DNA from: Thermoprotei archaeon
GTDB lineage: Archaea > Thermoproteota > Thermoprotei > Thermoproteales > B15-G16
Direction: 5' to 3'
Assembly: GCA_003649205.1 (NCBI GenBank)
Contig: QMRC01000004.1
Span: 1-64,000, forward strand
Length of the DNA: 64,000 bases
Within the stretch, counting starts at the first letter, position 1. The number at the start of each line of letters is the position of its first letter. The notes beneath the pieces are model-generated. The model was not told the DNA's origin, did not search any database, and saw only the letters and a list, made by a program, of their open reading frames with translations. Both the position numbers and the translations under genes were made by a program. This document shows positions 1,285 through 41,033 of the stretch, in pieces.

Positions 1285-1359
1285 ACCGTTTACTATCGTC
1301 ACTATGTGGGGTATATACTTATTCCTGATCTCGTCCACACATAATCTGGGGGGTTTGTC

Positions 1360-1848
1360 ATGGCTAGGCTGTACGTAGTGCCTGTAGTGGGTGATTACGT
1401 GTGCTTGACTAGGTTTGGTGGTGTTCTGTGTTTTCCAGGTTCTAGGTTTGATGTTGGTTCTGTGATTGTGGACTGTGTTAATGATGTCTTAAGTGAGTTT
1501 GGTGTTGAAGGTGTGGAGTCTCTACGTGAGGTTGTTGTGATTGAGGGTTTTGGTGATGTTGATGTTGATTATGCTCGTAAAGCTGTTGTGAATCCACCGA
1601 GAGTTGGTCTTCACTTTGTGTTCATGGGTGAGTTCGATAGAGTTCCTAGCCCTCATTTTCCTGATCATGAGGTTTCGGTGTATGTCCTCTGTTTGTGTAG
1701 GGAGGTTAGTGGTGAGTTGATTAGGTATGGGTTTAGGGAAATACTGGATAGATTTCAAGATCTCAGTATTGAGCCTTGGTCTTTGCTCTTGCTCAAGGTC
1801 TTACGTGCTGGGTATGTACCTAAGTCCTGGTTGAGAGTACTGCGGTGA
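1360..1848 (+). CDS. Hypothetical protein, possibly a degenerate Nudix fold
   Basis: 162-aa ORF; beta-strand pattern and FPG motif resemble Nudix, but there is no intact Nudix box. Confidence 0.5.
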   Translation: MARLYVVPVVGDYVCLTRFGGVLCFPGSRFDVGSVIVDCVNDVLSEFGVEGVESLREVVVIEGFGDVDVDYARKAVVNPPRVGLHFVFMGEFDRVPSPHFPDHEVSVYVLCLCREVSGELIRYGFREILDRFQDLSIEPWSLLLLKVLRAGYVPKSWLRVLR

Positions 1849-23117: not shown

Positions 23118-23558
23118 ATGGAAATTATCAAGAATCTGTATGAAGCACTTCAACGAATCAAGGGGGTAAAGCCAAGGTTTGTAATAGCTTTTATAGGTGA
23201 TGAGCCACTAGCAATATACCCAGAGAGTGAGGAGGTAGATCCAAGACTATGTGCATTGGTCTACAGCAGCTACGTAGGACTCGAAGCAACAGTAAAGGAC
23301 ATAGCTACAGTAGAGAGCGTAGGTAGTGGCGAAAATCCACCAATGTTGGAGGAGGTCATGGTGACACTATCTCGAGGAAGCTCAGAAATGTACCTCTGCA
23401 TATACGGTTCAAAGACTAGTCTAGGGCTGCACGTACTACTCGGTGTACTAGTTGAGGGCAATCTACACACAGTACACAAGGCCATGATAAGGACAATAGC
23501 TAGAAACTACATGGTTAAGCTAGTGAACTACGTAGAGACTGAGTACGTAACTAAGTAA
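23118..23558 (+). CDS. Roadblock/LC7 (MglB-like) domain protein
   Basis: Alpha-beta-beta-alpha-beta-beta-beta-alpha pattern with DPRLCAL, EEVMVT and LLGVLV; converges on the GTPase gene. Confidence 0.65.
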   Translation: MEIIKNLYEALQRIKGVKPRFVIAFIGDEPLAIYPESEEVDPRLCALVYSSYVGLEATVKDIATVESVGSGENPPMLEEVMVTLSRGSSEMYLCIYGSKTSLGLHVLLGVLVEGNLHTVHKAMIRTIARNYMVKLVNYVETEYVTK

Positions 23559-24144
23559 ACTTACTCAACTCAGCACACTTCCTAATGAAATCATCAACCC
23601 CACGTCTGTACAGTGCACTTGTCTCAACGTACTCCTGAATACCTAATCTCTTAGCAATCTCAGCACCTGGAAGAGCATTAGGTAGATCCTGCTTATTAGC
23701 AACAAGGAGAAGAACCTTGAACCTCACCTTCTCACTAACCTCTTTCAAAATCTTCTTACTGGCCTCAATACTTCTCTCATCACCTGAATCCACGACAAGA
23801 GCTACGACATCAACCTCCTTAGCACTAGTACTCAAGACTATGAGTCTCTGATGCCTAAACCTCTCATGACCAGGCGTACCAATGAACTTAATCTTCAAAA
23901 ACCTATCTGGCTCACCACTAGCTTCAGGAGGTACATAGCTAGTGTACCTACCTGTCTTAAGGTCGTAGATGATGATCCCTACATCCATGAATATCGTTGC
24001 ACCACTAGGCGCATTAACACTCTTAGCCCTCTCATCAATAGCGTGAATTAACGTAGTCTTACCAGCACCTGTAGGACCAGTGACCAATACCTTAACCTCC
24101 TTCAACCTAGTGAAGAACTTGATAGCACCAGCGAACTTTCTCAC
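23551..24144 (-). CDS. Small GTPase, MglA/Rup (COG2229-like) family
   Basis: G1 GPTGAGKTT, G2 TIFMDVG, G3 GTPGHERF, G4 NKQD, G5 TSA. Confidence 0.9.
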   Translation of the reverse strand: MRKFAGAIKFFTRLKEVKVLVTGPTGAGKTTLIHAIDERAKSVNAPSGATIFMDVGIIIYDLKTGRYTSYVPPEASGEPDRFLKIKFIGTPGHERFRHQRLIVLSTSAKEVDVVALVVDSGDERSIEASKKILKEVSEKVRFKVLLLVANKQDLPNALPGAEIAKRLGIQEYVETSALYRRGVDDFIRKCAELSKFT

Positions 24145-24788
24145 CTATATACCCTCAGAATACCTTTATCGATCAACTGTAGTAAATAGTTAACGAATTC
24201 CCTCCTAGGAATAGCTATCACAACCTCAAAGAACTTCCTAGGTAAAGTAACGAGAACCTTCTCCCACTCCTCAAGGAATTGAGGGACAGTAGCAGCGAGA
24301 ACCAACCTCACGTACGTGATGGGATCTCTCTTAGCCTCCTCCTCAGCAAAGTCAAGAACATACGTACTGTACTTAATTGCTCTAGAATCGAAATCCCCAT
24401 CGAGGTACTCAATAGGTACAAGGTGTTCACTACATAGCTCACCCTCCTCATACAGCTTCCTCAACACCTTAAGGTACTCAAATACGCTATCCCTGGAAAA
24501 CGGTATGTCATCCCTCCAAATAGCTAGAGCTAAGTCATCACCGAGGTAGAGAGCAAACTTCCTACCACCCAACTCAACGAGACAATACCTCTCAGAGCTA
24601 AGAGCAGCTATACTGAGACAGTTAGTAAATATGACCTGAGTCAACGTAGCCTCTCTCTCAAGCTCAAGCTCATCAACTATACTAGAGCTAAAGAAAGCTA
24701 CCAAGTCCGTAGTCTCAACATCACCACGAGGGACGTGAAAGAGCGCAACAACCAAGGAAACTTCACCTACCTCAAGAACTGGTGTCAC
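24141..24788 (-). CDS. Putative longin-like domain plus C-terminal winged helix protein
   Basis: N-terminal beta-beta-alpha-beta-beta-beta-alpha pattern (VVALFH...G, YCLVELGG, FALYLG, LALAIW); C-terminal LLQLIDKGILRV wHTH-type end; 4-nt overlap with the GTPase gene. Confidence 0.55.
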   Translation of the reverse strand: MTPVLEVGEVSLVVALFHVPRGDVETTDLVAFFSSSIVDELELEREATLTQVIFTNCLSIAALSSERYCLVELGGRKFALYLGDDLALAIWRDDIPFSRDSVFEYLKVLRKLYEEGELCSEHLVPIEYLDGDFDSRAIKYSTYVLDFAEEEAKRDPITYVRLVLAATVPQFLEEWEKVLVTLPRKFFEVVIAIPRREFVNYLLQLIDKGILRVYR

Positions 24789-24803
24789 ACTAGGAAATAA
24801 AAG

Positions 24804-25988
24804 CTAAACTGAAGTACCGAAACTGTAGTGATACATCTTACCTAGGAACAACACCTCACCAGAAACACCAACACCACCACCACGCTTACCAGCACAGAAA
24901 CTAAGCGATGAGTGAGACATCAAGTTACACAAAACCTTCCTCTCAACACGAAATACCTCACCAACCCCCCTAAACTCATACTCCGAAACACAACCACAGA
25001 ACTCAGTAAACAACTCAAGAAGAAGCTCAAGAACAGTAACCCTACCCCTCGAGTACAGGGAACAGAGATTAAACCACCGCCCCCCACTACACAACAACTT
25101 AAACACACAACCAATGAAGTTAAGCCTAACATCATGAGGTAACCAATGCAGAAAACTAGACGAAACAACACAATCAAACCTACCACACCAATCACGAGCA
25201 TGAACAAAATCACTCAACTCACCAAAACCACACACCTCATACTCAATAGAGGAGAGGTAGCTCTCAGGAACACCAAACTCACCACACCACCTCTCAACAA
25301 CACCCCACCACTCACCACAAAGCTTCTCACTAGGGAGAACAGCAACATACCTAAACCTACCAACACCAGCACCACGAAGCATACGAAGAACAGCAACAGT
25401 AGCATCACCGTACGGAACACCAACAAACTCAACAACAGCAACCCCATCCCTAGGCTTAAAACCAAGGTAAGACAGCAAGGACTCCCTAGTGTAGAACATA
25501 GCAGGACACGCATGAAGCACGTTAAACACCATGAGGTAGAAACTCCTATCGAGAAGAGCACTAACCCTATCCTCACTCGACCTCAACCTATCGACAAGAC
25601 GCCTAACAAGAAAATCAACAGCAAGAGCAAAGTGAGGAGAGAACTCCCTGAGATCCCCAGAACTAGGAGGTTCAACACCCCTAACAACCAACCTACCACC
25701 AACCCACCTAAACACACCAGCAACCTCAAGAGCCTCAACAACCCTATACAGAAGATCACGATCAAGACCAAGCCTCCTAGCAACCTCAGAAACCGAGACA
25801 CCAGACTCAAGAAGAGAAACAACACCAACCTCCCTAAGAACATCAACCAACCTACAAACTAAGTAAGAATCAAGAACACGACAAAACACATGACACCTCC
25901 GACCACCAAAAAGACCAATAGGCACAGCAAACCCCAACAAAACAAATAGCAAATCCAGTACTTTAACATTACACCATAACACAGACAC
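24804..25988 (-). CDS. wHTH plus degenerate class I SAM-methyltransferase-fold protein
   Basis: VSVSEVARRLGLDRDLLYRVVEALEVAGV wHTH; motif I-like VVEFVGVPYG; FDCVVSSSFLHW; LLCSGGRW. Start uncertain. Confidence 0.7.
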   Translation of the reverse strand: MSVLWCNVKVLDLLFVLLGFAVPIGLFGGRRCHVFCRVLDSYLVCRLVDVLREVGVVSLLESGVSVSEVARRLGLDRDLLYRVVEALEVAGVFRWVGGRLVVRGVEPPSSGDLREFSPHFALAVDFLVRRLVDRLRSSEDRVSALLDRSFYLMVFNVLHACPAMFYTRESLLSYLGFKPRDGVAVVEFVGVPYGDATVAVLRMLRGAGVGRFRYVAVLPSEKLCGEWWGVVERWCGEFGVPESYLSSIEYEVCGFGELSDFVHARDWCGRFDCVVSSSFLHWLPHDVRLNFIGCVFKLLCSGGRWFNLCSLYSRGRVTVLELLLELFTEFCGCVSEYEFRGVGEVFRVERKVLCNLMSHSSLSFCAGKRGGGVGVSGEVLFLGKMYHYSFGTSV

Positions 25989-26136
25989 AACACAGATCAG
26001 AGCTGCAGACCCACATCACCAATCAGCAACAGAAACCACATCACCACAAAACAACCCACAGAACCAAAATAAAAACACAACCCAACAAAGAGAAAACCAT
26101 AAATTAACCCAAACAAAACCACAAACACGAGAAACA

Positions 26137-26304
26137 GGGCCCGTAGCTCAGCCAGGCAGAGCGTCGGACCGCCCCGCTCGCCCCTGTTACAGGAATTGTT
26201 TGGGCGGGCGGGGTGGGACGAAGCTCCAGATGCTAGAACTCGGGTCTAAGGACCGATGACTGGGAGAGACCCGAAGGTCGGGGGTTCAAATCCCCCCGGG
26301 CCCA
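26137..26304 (+). tRNA. tRNA-Trp(CCA) with two introns (30/31: 26168-26222; 37/38: 26230-26268)
   Basis: GGGCCCG acceptor; joining the exons gives TCGGG-CTCCAGA-CCCGA; intron 1 forms a strict BHB, intron 2 a relaxed BHB; CCA not encoded. Confidence 0.9.
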
Positions 26305-26391
26305 TCATTTACTCATTCTAAGAGTGCCAATTTCAGTAGAGTTTACACATGTTTTCTTGAGTTCTCTTAATATATTCCTGTCTCTTCTTGT

Positions 26392-26856: not shown

Positions 26857-27737
26857 TTAATCCTGTAACTCAATGATCTCGTACTGTAGCAGCGATCTGT
26901 ATAAGTACTCTGTACCAAGTATCTCCACCCTATCAGTCATCACTATCGCCATAACGACTACGTGATCTACACTGTAATCTCGTGCATGTCGCTTAGCTTC
27001 CTCTACACTCAAGTCAATGAGTTTCTTCAAAGTCTTCATTGCTTCCTCAGCTACTTCAAACCTAGTCTTGACCTCTGCAATAGCTCTTACAGTACCACTA
27101 GCCTTGTCTAGTATTAGGAAATCTGGTTTTCCTGGCTTACCTACCGAGACTACTCTGTAATCAGCTAGACCTAGTGCTCTTGCTATGTATTGCTTCACCG
27201 CTTTATACTCAAGTAACTTAAGAGCTATCTGCTCTCCAATATATCCCCGTGCTACAGTACTTAACGTTAGGTACTCATTCACCAGCTTCGGCTTTACGTA
27301 GAGCTTAATTCCCTTCTCGACCTTCTCAATCACTATGTACTTCTCAATGTTTTCTAGCTCTAGTTTTGTTTCGTGTACCTTGAGCTTTGTTTCGTTTAGT
27401 AGGTACGTTACCTCTCCTACCTTTACGTAGTTTCCAATTACTGTTATTGCTTTTGTGGAGTCCTTGGTCTCTAGGTAGGTCTCTAGTACTTGGTTGCAGG
27501 TTGTTGGTTATATCCTGGGTACTTGAGTGCTAGGTATGTTGTGGATATTGCTAGTCCTATTACTAGTGCTCCGAGGAGTTTTCTTAGTGCCCTATCGTCT
27601 ATGAGGTACCTACCTAAGAAGAGCCATAGTAGGATTGTTGCTAGTGGTAGTGGTGCTTTGACTACTATTCCGATGATTGCTGATGCTATTGTCAGTAAGA
27701 TCAGGATTAATCTAATGAGTTTGGTAATTAGCTTCAA
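26857..27737 (-). pseudogene. Frameshifted gene: membrane segment (27483-27737) plus PD-(D/E)xK nuclease-like domain (26857 to about 27507)
   Basis: GYIGEQIA...KPDFLI...IAEVKT nuclease motif; its frame is open with no start codon up to about 27507, overlapping the end of the 3-TM ORF in the -1 frame. Confidence 0.6.
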
Positions 27738-28411: not shown

Positions 28412-29143
28412 CTACCTCTTCTTCGCTACTACGATTAATCTAGGACTTGTTGCCCTGTACTCACTCATCCTGTAGTCACCATACAGCTTCTCAACCTCGA
28501 GATCGTACCTACTGAGTAGATCGATCAGTTCCTTAGGCATGTACACTCTAATCGATGATCCTCTTACAGCAACTACCTTACCTGTCTCCTTATCTATGAA
28601 CATCCTCTTCATTAGGTACCTAGCTGAGACTAGGTCTAACCTACCCTTCCTCTAGAACCCTGTAGGTAGTAGCTAGCTACGAAGAGTGGTACAGGATTTA
28701 ACTGATCTATCAGCAACTTCCACCTCTCTTCAGTAGGTTTGCTACGTTCTCAATAATTACCTCATTCTCCTCATCTGTGAAGTATCCAAATGTTGTGAAG
28801 AATGTATACACTGCATCGAAGTGCTGTCTAAGTCTTGTCTAATCAAGTCGAGTAGGTTCTGTACCTGGTACTCACGTTCTCTCTCAAGTGCTTTAGCTAG
28901 TAAGTACTTACTTAGGTCAAGACCAACTACTCCACAACCCATCTTAGCTAGGTACGTTACGTGTCTACCGTAGCCACAACCTAGGTCGAGTACTCTCGAC
29001 TCTGATCTCAGCTCTAGTGCCTTAGCTATGATCTCTGCTTCCTGTCGATTCCTGTCTTCAGGTTCATGTAGTCTGTAGGTTTCGTGCACAGTTCATCAGG
29101 AGAAGTCTAGAAACTACTCGCTGGTATCTCGTACCTCGTCACC
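28412..29143 (-). pseudogene. Class I SAM-dependent methyltransferase pseudogene
   Basis: VLDLGCGYGRH and GLDLS in one frame; FDAVYTFFTTFGYF...LLKRGG in another; SIRVY...LYGDY...SPRLIVVAKK in a third fragment; multiple frameshifts and stops. Confidence 0.85.
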
Positions 29144-36159: not shown

Positions 36160-36954
36160 ATGAAGTTCGTACTGTACGTAGATGCCAACTCACCAATACA
36201 CAGACTAGACCCAAGAACAAAACTCTACTGGGTACTCTGCGTCTTCATATGGTCAATGACCTTCAACCACCCACTCTACACAGCAGCAATACTAGGAATC
36301 GTACTAGCAACACTACTGATGAGCAGAGCAATTAAAGGAGTGAAATTCGCAACAATACCACTGACAATACTCATAGCAATGTGCATCGTACTGTGGCCAC
36401 TCTTCAGAAGAGAAGGAACAACCGTACTACTCTCCCTAGGACCACTAAACATATACTACGAATCACTACTCTACGCAGTAGCTGTTGGATTTAGACTAAC
36501 AGCAATGGTCCTAGCAGGACTCACACTACTCGTAACAACCAGAATAGAGGAACTAGAAGCAGCACTAGTCAAGCTCAAGCTACCCTACCCAATAGCATTT
36601 GGAGTATCAGCAGTATTCAGATTCATACCAACACTCATGGGAGATGCACACATGGTAATAGCAGCACAGAGAGCAAGAGGAGTAGACCCCTTGAGAGGTA
36701 GCTTAGTAACCAAGATCAAGAACTCAGCATTGATAGTAGCGCCGATATTCATGACATCAATGAGAAGACTATCAACACTACCACTAGCAATGGAATCAAG
36801 AGGATACACACCAACAGCAAAGAGAACATACCTCATACAACTCAAGATGAGACCAGTAGACTACATCTACATAGCACTCTCCACAGCACTAACAGCAACC
36901 TTCATCTACATGAGACTAAACGGAATAGGAGTCATATACCCACACTACATCTAA
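36160..36954 (+). CDS. ecfT: ECF transporter T component
   Basis: IHRLDPRTK, RFIPTL, AQRARG, AMESRG. Confidence 0.93.
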   Translation: MKFVLYVDANSPIHRLDPRTKLYWVLCVFIWSMTFNHPLYTAAILGIVLATLLMSRAIKGVKFATIPLTILIAMCIVLWPLFRREGTTVLLSLGPLNIYYESLLYAVAVGFRLTAMVLAGLTLLVTTRIEELEAALVKLKLPYPIAFGVSAVFRFIPTLMGDAHMVIAAQRARGVDPLRGSLVTKIKNSALIVAPIFMTSMRRLSTLPLAMESRGYTPTAKRTYLIQLKMRPVDYIYIALSTALTATFIYMRLNGIGVIYPHYI

Positions 36955-37212
36955 GAAAACACAAACAAACTCAAAACCTCCTCAACAACACACTCAATCC
37001 ACTACCAACTCCCCCTTCCCAAAAGACAACACATAGATAGATACCCCAACTACGTAGAGTATAGTGAACACGATAACCTACATAGAGCTACCACACACAT
37101 AACACATGTATAGAGAAGCGACGAAACAATAGAACTGTACACTGTATACACGTTAAACACCTCAAACCACAGTTCAAGACAGGCTGCAATGTAGAGTATA
37201 CGTAGTTAAATA

Positions 37213-37238
37213 ATTTGAACTAATCAAATGTATATAAA
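37213..37238 (+). promoter_or_regulatory. Pilin promoter: palindrome ATTTGA-N5-TCAAAT abutting TATATAAA
   Basis: Perfect 6-bp inverted repeat at 37213-37229, TATA at 37231-37238, ATG at 37276. Confidence 0.6.
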
Positions 37239-37275
37239 CCATTCACTCAATATAAAGACCACAGAGGTTGGGAAT

Positions 37276-37812
37276 ATGAGGAGAAGTAGGAAAGGTATGA
37301 CCGCAATACAAGCAATTGTAATCGCAGTAGTAGCAATCGTAATTGCAGGAGTAGCAGCATTCGTAATCTGGAGAATGACAGCAGCTGCAGCAGCGCAATT
37401 CAAGCCAGAGGTACTGGAGAGCAAGGCAGTATATGATGAAAGTGATGGATCACAGGCAATCTATATTGTGCTTAGAAATGGAGGTACGAAACGCGTAAGG
37501 CTCATAGCGGTTGATGTTGTGACATCTGGTGGTAAGAAAACTGCCCCACCATCTGGTGGAGCTGCAGCAATAGAACCGGGATTAACGTATGTGATAAAGA
37601 TAAATCCTGCTTCACTGGGCATTGCAATGACACCAGCAGAAACAGTAACTGTTAACTTAAGGTTTGATGACGGCACAACAGTACCAGTTAGTATAGAGAG
37701 CGAAAGTGGTTCTATAAGCGATACCGAATCGTACATAGCTTCGGCCTTCTACGGTCAGGACAGTATACCTACCAATTACCTAATTATAGTGGGTGGGACA
37801 ACTGGTGTATAG
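37276..37812 (+). CDS. Type IV pilin (probable major pilin)
   Basis: Class III signal peptide MRRSRKG|MTAIQAIVIAVVAIVIAGVAAFVIW; LRNGG beta-sandwich motif. Confidence 0.88.
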   Translation: MRRSRKGMTAIQAIVIAVVAIVIAGVAAFVIWRMTAAAAAQFKPEVLESKAVYDESDGSQAIYIVLRNGGTKRVRLIAVDVVTSGGKKTAPPSGGAAAIEPGLTYVIKINPASLGIAMTPAETVTVNLRFDDGTTVPVSIESESGSISDTESYIASAFYGQDSIPTNYLIIVGGTTGV

Positions 37813-37835
37813 TATTATATAGTGGGGTAACAAAC

Positions 37836-39623
37836 TTGCTCCGTAGTAGTGTTTTTTTCAAAGTTCATCAATTTATATCTAACTTCCTAAACTCACATCC
37901 TGAAGTTAGCAGTAAACTTAATGATCTATTGCTTAGGGCTGGTATTCACATTCCTGCCGATGTCTATGTGTCCAATGCAGTTATTTCTTCAATGCTCACG
38001 TTCCTTGGATCTATGGCCCTTAGTATATTGCTTCTTACACTAATGAACTTACCTCCTAGCTTCACTATACTGTTCATATTTCCGGTACCTGTAATAACTT
38101 TCCTTTTCTTCCTATTCGTTATTCCACTTGTGAAAGCTAGTTCCATTAGGTCGAGACTTGATGTTGAGCTTCCTTTCTTTACTGCTTTTCTTTCTATGGT
38201 TGTTGCTAGTGGTGTTTCTATTGCTAGGGGTATTCACTATGTTGTTAAGAGACCTATCTTTGCTGAAACGAGTAGGTTCCTTAGGCAAATCTACATTAGG
38301 TTTATGTTCTATGGTAGGTCTGTTTTTGATGCTATTACTGAGGTTTGTAGGTTTATTCCTCATGAGAGGTTGAGGGCTATACTGAGTGGTTATGTTACGA
38401 CTGTTCTCACGGGTGGTGATGTTGTTCACTACATGGATCTCGTGACTAGGGATGTCATTAACTATAGATCGGCTACTGTTCGTTCAACGGTTAGCTTCGT
38501 TATTAACTTCATTACTGGTTTGACTGTTGGTGTTTTGATGATAATTGTCATGCTTGAGATTGTTGCTTATCTACCTGTCTTGGGTGTTGGTATTCAGGTT
38601 CTATCTCCTGAGGAGCTTGATGTGGTTTTCATGCTTCTCATGTTCTCTCCACTTCTCTTCATTGTCTTTGGGGCAACTACTCGTGGTATATACTCTGGAT
38701 CCATGAAGTATAGGGGGAGGCACTTCGTGTATGTAGCTGCGTTGTTTGGTATTGGTTGTCTCTGTGGTCTTGCTCTCTACCACTTACTACCTAGTGAGGT
38801 CGCTATTCAGCTTGGTTCTGTGTCTTCTGTTGTTAAGAAGGATCTATCTGTTCTCGTTATGTTGGTTATTCTCTGTGGTTGTCTTGCTGCTGGTGCTTGG
38901 TATGATCGTATTTATCGTGAGAGGATTAGTCTTGAGCGTGGTTTTGTAAGGTTTCTCGTGGATCTTGCTGAAGCTAGGAAGACTGGTCTCTCTGTTGAGA
39001 GGTGTTTTGAGTTGCTTGCTGAGAGGGATTACGGTGCTTTTACGAAGATTCTTCGTGATGCTGCTAGGCAGCTTAGGTTGGGTGTTTGGATTGGTAGGAT
39101 AGTGGATATGGTTGTGTCTAGGAGTACGTCGACTCTCGTGGATACCTACATGAGGTTGCTCATGTCTAGTATTGAGTTTGGTGGTGGTCATGTTAAGTCT
39201 CTTGAGTCGTTAGCTACCTTCGCAACTACTATGATGGGTATTGAGGATGAAGCTCGTAGGTCAGCTAAGCAGATTCTCATTATTGCGCTTATGGCTGTTG
39301 TCACCCTGCTCATTACTGTGATCTTCATGAATATCCTGTCTGTTGGTACTATTCAGTTCGTATCGTCTCCTGTCGCTGCTGGTGCTGGTGGTTACACATT
39401 TTCTGTCTCTAAGGAGCATCTAGCTATGTTGTCTGAGTTGAATTCACGTATCATCCTATTCGTCATACTGTGTTCAATTGCTCTCGGTTTCTTAGCTGGT
39501 AGGGTGTGTTACGGTGATGTTCTTCAGTCCTTTAGGGCTATTGCTCTGTTGTCTGCTGTCTCGCTTGTGCTGTATGTATTCTCTCCTGTTGTTCAGAGTA
39601 TTGTGCTTGGTATTGGTGGTTGA
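37836..39623 (+). CDS. T4P membrane platform protein (TadC/FlaJ family, two T2SSF domains)
   Basis: LDVELPFF...SG, FLVDLAEARKTGLS, RDYGAFT, FGGG; many TMs. Confidence 0.9.
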   Translation: MLRSSVFFKVHQFISNFLNSHPEVSSKLNDLLLRAGIHIPADVYVSNAVISSMLTFLGSMALSILLLTLMNLPPSFTILFIFPVPVITFLFFLFVIPLVKASSIRSRLDVELPFFTAFLSMVVASGVSIARGIHYVVKRPIFAETSRFLRQIYIRFMFYGRSVFDAITEVCRFIPHERLRAILSGYVTTVLTGGDVVHYMDLVTRDVINYRSATVRSTVSFVINFITGLTVGVLMIIVMLEIVAYLPVLGVGIQVLSPEELDVVFMLLMFSPLLFIVFGATTRGIYSGSMKYRGRHFVYVAALFGIGCLCGLALYHLLPSEVAIQLGSVSSVVKKDLSVLVMLVILCGCLAAGAWYDRIYRERISLERGFVRFLVDLAEARKTGLSVERCFELLAERDYGAFTKILRDAARQLRLGVWIGRIVDMVVSRSTSTLVDTYMRLLMSSIEFGGGHVKSLESLATFATTMMGIEDEARRSAKQILIIALMAVVTLLITVIFMNILSVGTIQFVSSPVAAGAGGYTFSVSKEHLAMLSELNSRIILFVILCSIALGFLAGRVCYGDVLQSFRAIALLSAVSLVLYVFSPVVQSIVLGIGG

Positions 39624-40036
39624 GAATGAGTATGGATGTTAGGTTTTTCTCGAGTTTTCAGGAAGCTTTGGAATTCTTTGAGCGTGAGCGTGAGAGGTTA
39701 CGGTCTAGGCTTGAGGAGCTTAGGGTTGTTGTTAAGGAGTTTGAGGAGCTTCGTAGTAATCCAATCTATGAGGAGGTTGAGGAGCGTGTTCAGGAGTTTG
39801 AGAGTGTCTTTGGTAAGATTCGTATAGTGATTTCTGAGCCATTGTCGAAGTTATTGGAGAGGCTTCACTCTATCTTAAGTGATCTCGAGGTTGCTGTTAA
39901 GAATCTCGATGAGACGATCAGTACTCTCCGTAAGGCTCTCGATCAAGATCCATCCCTTAAGAATGTTAAGGGGACAGTGATTGTTGTTCTTGAGAATTAC
40001 CTAGCTAAGAGGGTTATTGTCGTGCTTGCTCCTTAG
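39620..40036 (+). CDS. Pilus-operon coiled-coil/beta-hairpin protein
   Basis: Helix-hairpin-helix-strands pattern; 4-nt overlap with the TadC gene. Confidence 0.7.
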   Translation: MRMSMDVRFFSSFQEALEFFERERERLRSRLEELRVVVKEFEELRSNPIYEEVEERVQEFESVFGKIRIVISEPLSKLLERLHSILSDLEVAVKNLDETISTLRKALDQDPSLKNVKGTVIVVLENYLAKRVIVVLAP

Positions 40037-41033
40037 GGGTGAGTGCATGCTGAGTACTCCGCTAGATGTCTCGTGGTTTATTAAGTTACTTGTCGTGTGC
40101 GTATCTGAGTACAGTCTGTACTTAACTCTCGCATCCTTAGTAGTGGGTGTAGTTCTTGTTGTTCTTGATAGGGTGTCTATTGGTGTTGCTATACCTACTT
40201 CACTTGTCGTGCTGGGAGCTACTCTACATCTACTGTATCCAGGTGATGTTCCTCTTAACTCACTTATCAACTATCTCTTTGCTCTTCTCTTGACGATTAC
40301 GGTGCTTGTTTGCTATGATCTCTTGAGGTTGATTATGGAATCTAGGTCTAGTGTCTCGGAAGAGGGTTCTAAGGAAGTACCTACGGAGAGACGTGGGTTT
40401 AAGGTACGTATTCTCGGTCGGAGAGTGAAGGAGGTTAAGCACGTAGTTCCTTCTGAGAAGCTTGATTCAGTGATTAAGGAGGTGTTACCTACTCTTAGGC
40501 CTCTAGCTTCGTCTCTTATACCTGTATCAACTTCATCGCTTGAGTCTTCAACTAGGAGCTTATCCGCTAGTGGGGATGTTAGGGGGAGATTGAGTAGGGT
40601 ATTGTCTCTTGTTAGGGGGAGGTGTATGTGTGTTATTCTTGGTCGTGGATTAGAGGATTTTGCTGAGAAGCTTCGTGAGTTTGAGACTTACCTCAAGTTC
40701 GAGATTTCACGTCTTAGGGCTAAGAGGTTGCAGGTAGAGAACTTGCTTAGGTTGGTGTCTCGTGGTGTTAAGGCTTCTCACGTGATCAAGAGGTTTAGTG
40801 TTGGTGGTTGTAGTTTTGAAGTTCTTGATTTCTACGATAAGTCTATTCTCGTACTTCTTGAGGATAAGGTACGTAGAGATGTCATCCTCCTTTCTCAGGT
40901 ACGTGAGATCCTCGATGAGCTTGAGAGGGGTTCGCTACAGAACATTATCTCTCGTGATGATTTGTTGATCCTACCAGTACTGTACTCATCGTGTGGTGAT
41001 GTACTTGTTCTACATAAGGTTTCCAGGAGGTGA
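40017..41033 (+). CDS. Pilus-operon membrane protein with C-terminal coiled-coil/hairpin domain
   Basis: About three N-terminal TMs, Ser-rich linker, C-terminal domain resembling 39620..40036. Confidence 0.65.
   Translation: MSCLLLRGECMLSTPLDVSWFIKLLVVCVSEYSLYLTLASLVVGVVLVVLDRVSIGVAIPTSLVVLGATLHLLYPGDVPLNSLINYLFALLLTITVLVCYDLLRLIMESRSSVSEEGSKEVPTERRGFKVRILGRRVKEVKHVVPSEKLDSVIKEVLPTLRPLASSLIPVSTSSLESSTRSLSASGDVRGRLSRVLSLVRGRCMCVILGRGLEDFAEKLREFETYLKFEISRLRAKRLQVENLLRLVSRGVKASHVIKRFSVGGCSFEVLDFYDKSILVLLEDKVRRDVILLSQVREILDELERGSLQNIISRDDLLILPVLYSSCGDVLVLHKVSRR

Follow-up and report, generated by a model that had tools for sequence, protein, structure and literature searches.

The DNA analysed here, a stretch of 64,000 nt from a Thermoprotei archaeon of the order Thermoproteales (hereafter, the window), carries between positions 23118 and 25988 a compact cluster of four genes that includes one for a small GTPase. 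Three of them, encoding a methyltransferase (MTase)-like protein, a 215-aa orphan protein and the GTPase itself, lie on the minus strand, and a fourth, whose product is predicted to adopt the roadblock fold, converges on them from the other side. A diverged second copy of the minus-strand trio occurs elsewhere in the same genome. The six-frame list of open reading frames (ORFs) places all four genes at the coordinates given by the original prediction, a reading of this DNA made from the sequence alone, and bears out the tight minus-strand operon and the 8-nt, tail-to-tail overlap between the 146-aa gene and the GTPase gene that it had described. Within the operon the 215-aa gene overlaps the start of the GTPase gene by 4 nt, and 15 nt separate the stop of the MTase-like ORF, followed by the run TTTTATTT, from the start of the 215-aa gene. 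The flanks are housekeeping genes encoding a proteasome beta subunit, an FKBP-type isomerase, ribosomal protein S17e and a thermosome subunit. All four genes are present in identical order in a sister genome (G001; 71% complete), the only congener in the genome collection, with ratios of nonsynonymous to synonymous divergence (dN/dS) of 0.12-0.28; the source assembly (G000) comprises 31 contigs and 2.07 Mb. The features of the locus are as follows.

23118..23558, plus strand: 146-aa predicted roadblock-fold protein, a putative MglB-like regulator outside the duplicated core (ORF list)
23551..24144, minus strand: 197-aa MglA-type small GTPase, G3 motif GTPGH (Pfam Arf/Ras, TIGR00231, motifs)
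24141..24788, minus strand: 215-aa orphan partner protein (ORF list; family profile)
24804..25988, minus strand: 394-aa winged helix-turn-helix (wHTH) and class-I-MTase-like protein with degenerate S-adenosylmethionine (SAM) motifs (HTH_29; homology to a paralog)
24790..26140, minus strand: G+T-rich tract (composition in 200-nt windows)
25994..26048, minus strand: candidate C/D box small RNA (sRNA), directly upstream of the MTase-like ORF (boxes and spacing; weak Rfam match)
26143..26309, plus strand: tRNA gene with an intron of ~100 nt, the upstream border of the locus (tRNA arms by eye; match of the 3' half to a tmRNA model)

The GTPase and its predicted roadblock neighbour

The 197-aa protein passes the Pfam cut-offs for Arf (E = 3.2e-13), Ras (2.7e-9) and MMR_HSR1, and scores 49.1 bits against TIGR00231 (5.3e-13; cut-off 42.5). 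Its closest solved structures are Arf1 chains (1.4e-10), and its closest database relatives beyond the genus bear Arf, Sar or SR-beta names (8.5e-12 to 9e-6, at ~30% identity). The Ras-superfamily motif set (G1 GxxxxGK[ST], the G2 Thr, G3, G4 NKxD and G5 SA) is complete, and in the GTPase alignment A2 the G1 GPTGAGKT, G2 T50, G3 GTPG, G4 NKQD and G5 ETSA are invariant. The G3 motif is without Asp, reading F-I-G-T-P-G-H in the window GTPase and G-T-P-G-Q in the paralog encoded by the second trio on contig C1. According to the consulted part of the study of the wider MglA family by Wuichet and Sogaard-Andersen (2014; PMC4316618), a G3 without Asp combined with coupling to a roadblock homolog, that is, encoding within four genes of an MglB or roadblock homolog, separates MglA from Rup, and 390 of 449 small MglA proteins are coupled to MglB (PMC4316618). 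Both GTPases of this genome have the MglA-family G3; the window GTPase adjoins the 146-aa gene, a roadblock gene by Atlas structure match and not by Pfam, and no gene of that kind adjoins the second GTPase copy. In switch I, the stretch T-x-F-x-D presumably also resembles MglA. The GTPase assignment of the original prediction is confirmed by the Arf, Ras and TIGR00231 matches and the G-motifs, and the analysis supports a real small GTPase of MglA type beside a gene for a predicted roadblock fold. Its dN/dS against G001 is 0.16.

Sister families of the order Thermoproteales carry a same-strand roadblock-GTPase operon, but the classic archaeal GTPase of that kind (query L003:1357-1920) is absent from the present genome, where its best match is the window GTPase itself (29% identity, E = 2.1e-6). 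A scan of genome contigs with the GTPase returned only the sister genome and an unrelated longin-GTPase array of a Freyarchaeota chromosome (L028). In that array three proteins of 312-329 aa, each fusing an N-terminal longin-like region to a small GTPase, are encoded in tandem and adjoin a 372-aa GTPase.

The 146-aa neighbour has no match in Pfam, NCBIfam or PADLOC. An ESM Atlas model of exactly this protein (predicted TM-score 0.80) finds as its best structural match a cluster that is 100% PF03259 Robl_LC7, with TM-scores of 0.67 by query and 0.79 by target over 118 aligned residues, and further Atlas rows are named Roadblock/LAMTOR2. The roadblock fold of the protein is therefore supported by one source, a predicted model; the earlier assignment of a roadblock pattern stands at the level of that model and finds no echo in the Pfam and NCBIfam families. 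A genome scan with PF03259 picked up only loci other than this gene, and at least two other roadblock-like genes lie on contigs C6 and C9. A word-based sequence search with the 146-aa protein returned as sole homolog its 90%-identical ortholog in G001 (dN/dS 0.13), and profile comparison of alignment A3 with archaeal roadblock proteins gave no match. Since the gene is convergent, it is not co-transcribed with the trio, and with no counterpart at the second copy and no paralog in the genome it drops out of the conserved core to which it had been assigned.

The duplicated trio and its methyltransferase-like member

The second trio, at C1:194706-196952 (locus L018), consists of a 197-aa 215-like gene, a 341-aa MTase-like gene and a 209-aa GTPase gene, whose products are respectively 27% (E = 6e-9), 28% (E = 3e-39 over 335 aa) and 58% identical to those of the window. 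The order is 215-like, MTase-like, GTPase, as against MTase-like, 215-aa, GTPase in the window; the packing is equally tight (a 4-nt overlap and a 1-nt gap), and there is no roadblock gene. No C1-type copy was found in the 71% of G001 that is available. On a metagenome contig (L029), a third and diverged 215-like gene is convergent with an MTase-like gene. The linkage of the three minus-strand genes on which the original prediction depended is thus conserved, both in a diverged second trio and in the adjacency on L029. Duplication and linkage define the trio as a rare, lineage-restricted operon of a hot-spring archaeon, with a conserved core that does not include the roadblock gene. The region upstream of the second trio (L018 1737-4429) encodes an archaeal ATPase (ATPase_2, 2e-25), a canonical class I MTase (Methyltransf_25, 2.4e-13) and, by eye, a low-molecular-weight phosphatase-like protein.

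The rarity of the trio is extreme. Only five clusters among 1,835,955,588 representatives belong to the 215-aa family by HMMER, two of them the genome's own, and among 401 genomes sampled across the phylum the family is present in one, G000 itself. Of 120 genomes sampled from the class, three carry the MTase-like family at E values up to 0.001, namely G000, G001 and, as a marginal partial match (7.8e-4), G013; a word-based search with the MTase paralog returned only itself or the sister ortholog. The trio was not found beyond one genus and three metagenome clusters, and it therefore does not look ancestral. A combination of GTPase, wHTH-methyltransferase and orphan partner was not found in print, and the consulted parts of PMC10933270 and of PMC4316618 make no mention of it.

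The MTase-like protein of the window has a putative N-terminal winged helix (HTH_29 at 6.5e-5, also short of the Pfam cut-off, with several other HTH families, at residues 56-91), and its own MTase matches (Methyltransf_12 at E = 0.041) are below the Pfam cut-off, as are those of its G001 ortholog. The METHYLTRANSFERASE-like paralog on C1 and the L029 homolog pass the cut-offs for Methyltransf_11, _12, _25 and _31, and homology to the paralog points to a class I MTase domain in the window protein as well; the earlier MTase-like call is upheld through this kinship, not through the sub-threshold matches of the window copy. As a mark of SAM binding we took the glycine-rich loop E/D-x-G-x-G-x-G (motif I) and, where beta-2 ends, an acidic residue (motif II). 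Motif I is replaced by VVEFVGVPYG in the window and ILEFVGVPYG in G001, as against LIELGAGYG in the paralog and ILEVGAGAG on L029, and the motif II acid by Leu-Pro (window YVAVLPS, G001 YIAILPS), as against Asp (paralog LICVDMS, L029 YLCTDYS). The fold is thus inherited, and the SAM pocket probably lost in the window copy. The loss of both motifs argues against the SAM sensing that had been proposed for this protein.

The limits of the MTase-like gene call for some care. All six frames are open across 24900-25860, where the plus strand is 74-82% A+C, and openness of the ORF is therefore no evidence of a gene. The start is also uncertain, because a 61-nt indel relative to the sister genome falls within the first ~90 nt; an in-frame GTG at 25925 or 25889 is the more likely initiation site.

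The 215-aa protein is an orphan by every comparison made. None of the six members of its family has a Pfam match at E values up to 10, and so none matches an HTH family either; the 215-aa protein has no NCBIfam or PADLOC match, a profile search of the PDB with the family alignment A4 gave chance-level rows only (E of 0.3 or more), and A4 has no profile match to alignment A3 or to the MTase-like family alignment A8. Atlas feature matches to unnamed Asgard clusters (0.84-0.86) and to a TrmB-bearing cluster (0.81) are below the 0.9 bar and serve as leads only. By eye, the N-terminal half might be read as beta-beta-alpha-beta-beta-beta-alpha, the order of a longin domain, and the tail as winged-helix-like. 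The gene has a dN/dS of 0.12 against G001.

A gene-bounded substitution asymmetry and the borders of the locus

The more surprising observation at this locus is not the GTPase module but a substitution asymmetry that is bounded by one gene. Over ~24790-26140 the minus strand is 74-82% G+T in 200-nt windows, and the coding strand of the MTase-like ORF has the composition A 0.13, C 0.13, G 0.33 and T 0.42 (75% G+T), with 2% A and 89% G+T at third codon positions. Third positions of the 215-aa and GTPase genes are at 0.70 and 0.75 G+T; the values for bulk genes and for the 146-aa gene are 0.54 and 0.41, respectively. The MTase-like ORF is 77% identical to its G001 ortholog, as against 86-93% and balanced substitutions in the neighbouring genes; on its coding strand A>G differences number 105 vs 9 for G>A, and C>T differences 63 vs 26 for T>C, with 179 changes in all to G or T and 30 away. 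Its dN of 0.177 lies above the range of eight neighbouring genes (0.008-0.060) and its dS of 0.628 within theirs (0.23-0.70), the resulting dN/dS being 0.28 vs 0.02-0.16. Past the disputed start, the sole indel between the two species is one of 9 nt, in frame.

Among 299 orthologue pairs of G000 and G001, covering ~340 kb of the latter, this gene has the largest shift in G+T (0.74 vs 0.61; z = 8.0). Of the 273 genes in which 20 or more such changes were counted, none has a greater proportion directed toward G or T (0.86, vs a median of 0.52 and a 95th percentile of 0.66). The pairs were counted after removal of one arm of contig C3, since every one of the 291,428 positions of that contig agrees with its reverse complement. 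This is an artefact of fold-back assembly, by which ~146 kb are present twice and the genome size and gene counts of the assembly are inflated. A per-100-nt substitution table shows no excess toward G/T outside 24800-25999: substitutions in the downstream genes are balanced, and upstream, at 26000-26099, a G001-like contig shows one difference in 100 aligned bases, as against ~9% in neighbouring genes. The allele itself is real, as an identical contig is found in run X1 (the possible source of the window) and a G+T-rich allele with 20 differences from the window in 636 nt (3%) is found, beside a G001-like allele, in run X2 from another study. With the paralog and the L029 homolog as protein outgroups, the window is derived at 16 sites and G001 at 21, and 77 sites are uninformative. 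Import of a diverged MTase-like allele by recombination is possible.

A bolder reading, which we put forward tentatively and consider doubtful, is that the MTase-like gene bears the trace of a mutation drive that acts, in a hyperthermophile, on one strand only and within the limits of a transcription unit. If this is true, deamination-type A>G and C>T changes amass on the non-template strand within a single gene and go no farther; the ~56 genes with G+T-rich coding strands would owe their composition to this process as well, which would be self-feeding if a G-rich transcript favours R-loops. The trio would then be a GTPase switch with a methyltransferase subunit that is freed from catalysis and being rewritten. 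Among the papers listed by a literature search on strand asymmetry in hyperthermophiles, none dealt with gene-bounded tracts, to judge by title and abstract. The gene-bounded A>G/C>T excess and the G+T-rich gene class could reveal strand-specific thermal DNA damage in natural genomes.

That class can be described in its own right. With one C3 arm removed, G000 contains 107 tracts of at least 400 nt at 70% or more G+T on one strand, together 101.6 kb in 1.92 Mb. Of its 1889 greedy ORFs, 56 reach 0.68 G+T or more; in the window, further G+T-rich genes lie at 1298-1822 (plus strand), 36699-37211 (minus) and 38708-39216 (plus). Third positions of the class have A.07, C.10, G.29 and T.54 (bulk.29,.17,.23 and.30), Lys, Ile, Asn, Thr and Gln are halved in the encoded proteins, and Val, Cys and Arg are raised. 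The genes cluster, with 15 adjacent pairs vs 4.3 expected, and 6 of 10 sampled ORFs have strong Pfam matches (MFS, Csa3, V4R, MarR with NMT1, ATPase_2 and Dph2). Among the orthologue pairs, the G+T-rich genes other than the MTase-like one are rich in G+T in G000 and G001 alike and have diverged to an ordinary degree. Of 120 genomes of the same taxonomic class, complete ones included, 73 contain runs of at least 26 consecutive G/T, among them 26 of 31 genomes of family f2 and 20 of 29 of f3; the naive expectation is ~0.06 per 2-Mb genome, simple repeats are included in the counts, and the control is uninformative for a symmetric pattern.

The most serious rival to a functional trio is that the window's MTase-like ORF is dead, a relic that stays open only through the near absence of A from its coding strand, and that the functional unit consists of the 215-aa protein and the GTPase, perhaps with the roadblock protein. 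The six open frames, the 2% A at third positions, the high dN, the lost SAM motifs and the sub-threshold Pfam matches would all fit such a relic. Nevertheless, we consider it unlikely: dN/dS is below 1, the one indel past the disputed start keeps the frame, the protein aligns end to end with its paralog, and an ortholog with the same motif losses has been kept in the sister species. Moreover, several G+T-rich genes of G000 are clearly functional, encoding Dph2 (1.1e-31), an MFS transporter (6.1e-29) and ATPase_2 (2.5e-40).

Upstream of the trio lie a candidate sRNA gene and the tRNA gene that borders the locus. The candidate C/D box sRNA has its boxes at the right spacing (TGATGT, ~11 nt, CTGA, 4 nt, TGATGT, ~11 nt, CTGA), lies inside a 100-nt stretch conserved in the sister lineage, and scores 20.5 bits against Rfam snoPyro_CD (E = 0.065; gathering score 45) and E = 0.08 against sR5. 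The tRNA gene shows, by eye, an acceptor stem and D-arm at its 5' end and a T-arm and acceptor stem at its 3' end; it was missed by ARAGORN and by Rfam at gathering score, and its 3' half was matched via the tmRNA model (E = 1.6e-7). Contigs of other organisms in four sequencing runs join 26167 to 26269 with GCTCTTA between. Synteny with the sister genome ends past the tRNA, the alignment decaying beyond 26300.

Farther out in the window, a 158-aa ORF at 26857-27333 (minus strand) has a PD-(D/E)xK-like motif by eye (GKPDF ... IAEVKT) and, as its only database match, a weak one to bacHORMA_2 (0.057). A 110-aa ORF at 28757-29089 (minus) corresponds to the N-terminal half of a class I MTase (Methyltransf_25, 5.7e-10, profile positions 1-71 of 97) and is probably truncated. 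At 37228-41033 (plus), in a partly G+T-rich stretch ~13 kb from the GTPase, a pilin-like ORF with the look of a class III signal peptide precedes the gene for a multi-pass membrane protein of 595 aa and two more ORFs; together they may form a type IV pilus or archaellum-like cluster.

A proposed switch with putative new partners and its relation to known systems

We regard it as about evenly balanced whether the locus encodes a new flavour of GTPase-roadblock switch, in the form of a lineage-restricted MTase-like/215-aa/GTPase operon with an adjoining roadblock-fold gene and a non-catalytic MTase-like protein in the window copy. The GTPase would alternate as a GTP/GDP switch, and the roadblock protein, by analogy with MglB and MglA, might act on it as a platform of the GTPase-activating or nucleotide-exchange type. 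The 215-aa protein, whose gene is translationally coupled to that of the GTPase, and the wHTH-MTase(-like) protein would be partners or effectors of the GTPase, tying its nucleotide state to a nucleic-acid-bound or methylation-related output. To judge by its motifs, the MTase-like subunit of the window most likely serves as a scaffold, without catalysis or SAM binding, and it appears to evolve fast under strand-biased (A>G, C>T) substitution pressure; the C1 copy, in which the SAM motifs are kept, may be an active enzyme.

Several observations weigh against this proposal. At the positions that we compared, MglA is taken to have an intrinsic Arg finger ahead of the Thr of switch I, and a catalytic Gln in G3; the window GTPase has His at the latter position, where the paralog has Gln, and S-G-A-T before and at the switch I Thr, without the Arg, vs Y-R-S-T in the paralog. 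The roadblock call for the 146-aa protein derives from one predicted model, and its gene is convergent with the trio and missing from the second copy. Comparison of the 215-aa family with hhalign gave a probability of only 0.31 against archaeal roadblock proteins and 0.06 against Asgard longin domains. Finally, a 215-like gene on another metagenome contig (L031) is accompanied by neither an MTase-like nor a GTPase gene within the preceding 1.2 kb, where a peptidase-like gene is found, or within the 256 nt that remain of the contig after it.

A defence or DNA-modification module, made up of a methyltransferase, an NTPase and wHTH proteins in a variable region beside a tRNA gene, would account for the extreme rarity, the patchy spread, the two diverged copies per genome and the position of the locus against a tRNA gene that marks a break in synteny with the sister genome. 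It could also draw on the PD-(D/E)xK-like ORF, on a weak Sp-CxC match of the 215-aa paralog (E = 0.056), and on PADLOC matches of the paralog MTase to mad2 (6.4e-12) and of the GTPase to mad8 (1.2e-8). Those PADLOC matches, however, cover generic cores only (SAM-MTase residues 147-271 and the P-loop half of the GTPase, residues 18-135), neither operon includes a nuclease or specificity subunit, the nuclease modules of MADS are lacking here, and the trio is syntenic between two species beside thermosome, S17e and proteasome genes; we judge a defence role to be distinctly unlikely. As described in the consulted part of PMC13662399, MADS is an eight-gene operon (mad1-mad8) with ATPase-nuclease modules (PMC13662399). 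Kinship with MADS was rejected, the mad2 and mad8 matches being at the level of domains and the other components absent.

That four unrelated genes came together by chance in a compact genome is very improbable: the convergent roadblock gene, absent from the second copy, and the other neighbours of the L031 gene would allow it, but the trio occurs twice, its three members having diverged in concert, 4-nt start/stop overlaps occur in both copies, the 215-like and MTase-like genes are adjacent in a third lineage, and a roadblock/GTPase adjacency is expected at <1% by a rough estimate (~3 roadblock-like genes and two GTPase genes among 1889 ORFs). Least probable of all is the interpretation first offered for this locus, in which the GTPase forms part of a compact SAM-sensing switch, akin by descent or by analogy to Rag, Ragulator, GATOR1 and SAMTOR: the joint presence of a GTPase, a roadblock-fold neighbour and an MTase-fold protein, the Arf/Sar/SR-beta-like nearest relatives of the GTPase outside the genus (an Asgard protein among them) and the sub-threshold Asgard leads for the 215-aa protein speak for it, but the SAM motifs are lost in both the window copy and its sister ortholog, the Pfam matches (E up to 0.1-1; for the GTPase, the best 25 of 39) include no SAMTOR/Bmt2, NPR2/NPR3, longin or Gtr1/RagA family, PF04670 is absent from the precomputed Pfam list of the window GTPase and present for some of its other matches, the 197-aa GTPase is without the C-terminal roadblock domain of Rag proteins, and the trio was not found outside one genus and three metagenome clusters.

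Comparison with known systems places the switch that we propose more precisely. The Rag-Ragulator-GATOR1-SAMTOR machinery resembles it by fold only (small GTPase, roadblock and class I MTase), and differs in having no similarity to it at the family level, in the roadblock domain fused to its GTPases and in the SAM motifs lost here; the locus has no bearing on the origin of the eukaryotic Rag nutrient sensor. The likeness to MADS consists of the domain-level PADLOC matches to generic cores of mad2 and mad8, and six of the eight MADS genes are missing here. Arf, Sar and SR-beta proteins include the closest solved structure (Arf1, 1.4e-10) and the closest non-genus relatives of the GTPase (SR-beta- and Arf-named matches at 4e-10 to 9e-6), at an identity of ~30% and with the G3 Asp that the window GTPase is without.

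GTPase-roadblock systems are nearer. Archaeal GTPase-roadblock coupling is said to have been known since Koonin and Aravind in 2000, and to our knowledge the pairing is an old prokaryotic switch whose outputs are mostly unknown outside Myxococcus. The classic roadblock-GTPase operon of the sister families is found in the same archaeal order and shares GTPase size and a G3 of the form G-x-P-G-Q/H; however, its GTPases are 26-29% identical to those described here, its roadblock gene lies directly upstream on the same strand, and it has no MTase-like or 215-like gene. Actinobacterial conservons consist of the CvnA kinase, the CvnB roadblock protein, the DUF742 protein CvnC and the CvnD GTPase. 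They are likewise multi-gene modules, in which a GTPase of the MglA family is accompanied by a roadblock protein as well as a small protein, whereas the present module is archaeal and so far of one genus, and has a methyltransferase-fold protein instead of a histidine kinase or DUF742 protein, for which neither locus has an ORF or match. With MglA-MglB the module shares a single-domain GTPase, a G3 without Asp and a gene for a roadblock-fold protein next door; it differs in the convergence of that gene, which Pfam Robl_LC7 does not detect, in the His in place of Gln at the catalytic position, and in the 215-aa and wHTH-MTase-like partners, which are not described for any MglA group in the part of PMC4316618 consulted. 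The MglA-type GTPase of this archaeon would thus have an orphan protein and a winged-helix methyltransferase as fixed partners, both of kinds new for such a GTPase, and the two diverged copies of the trio, one with the SAM motifs intact and one with them lost, may offer a natural enzyme/pseudoenzyme pair for asking what an archaeal switch of this kind controls.

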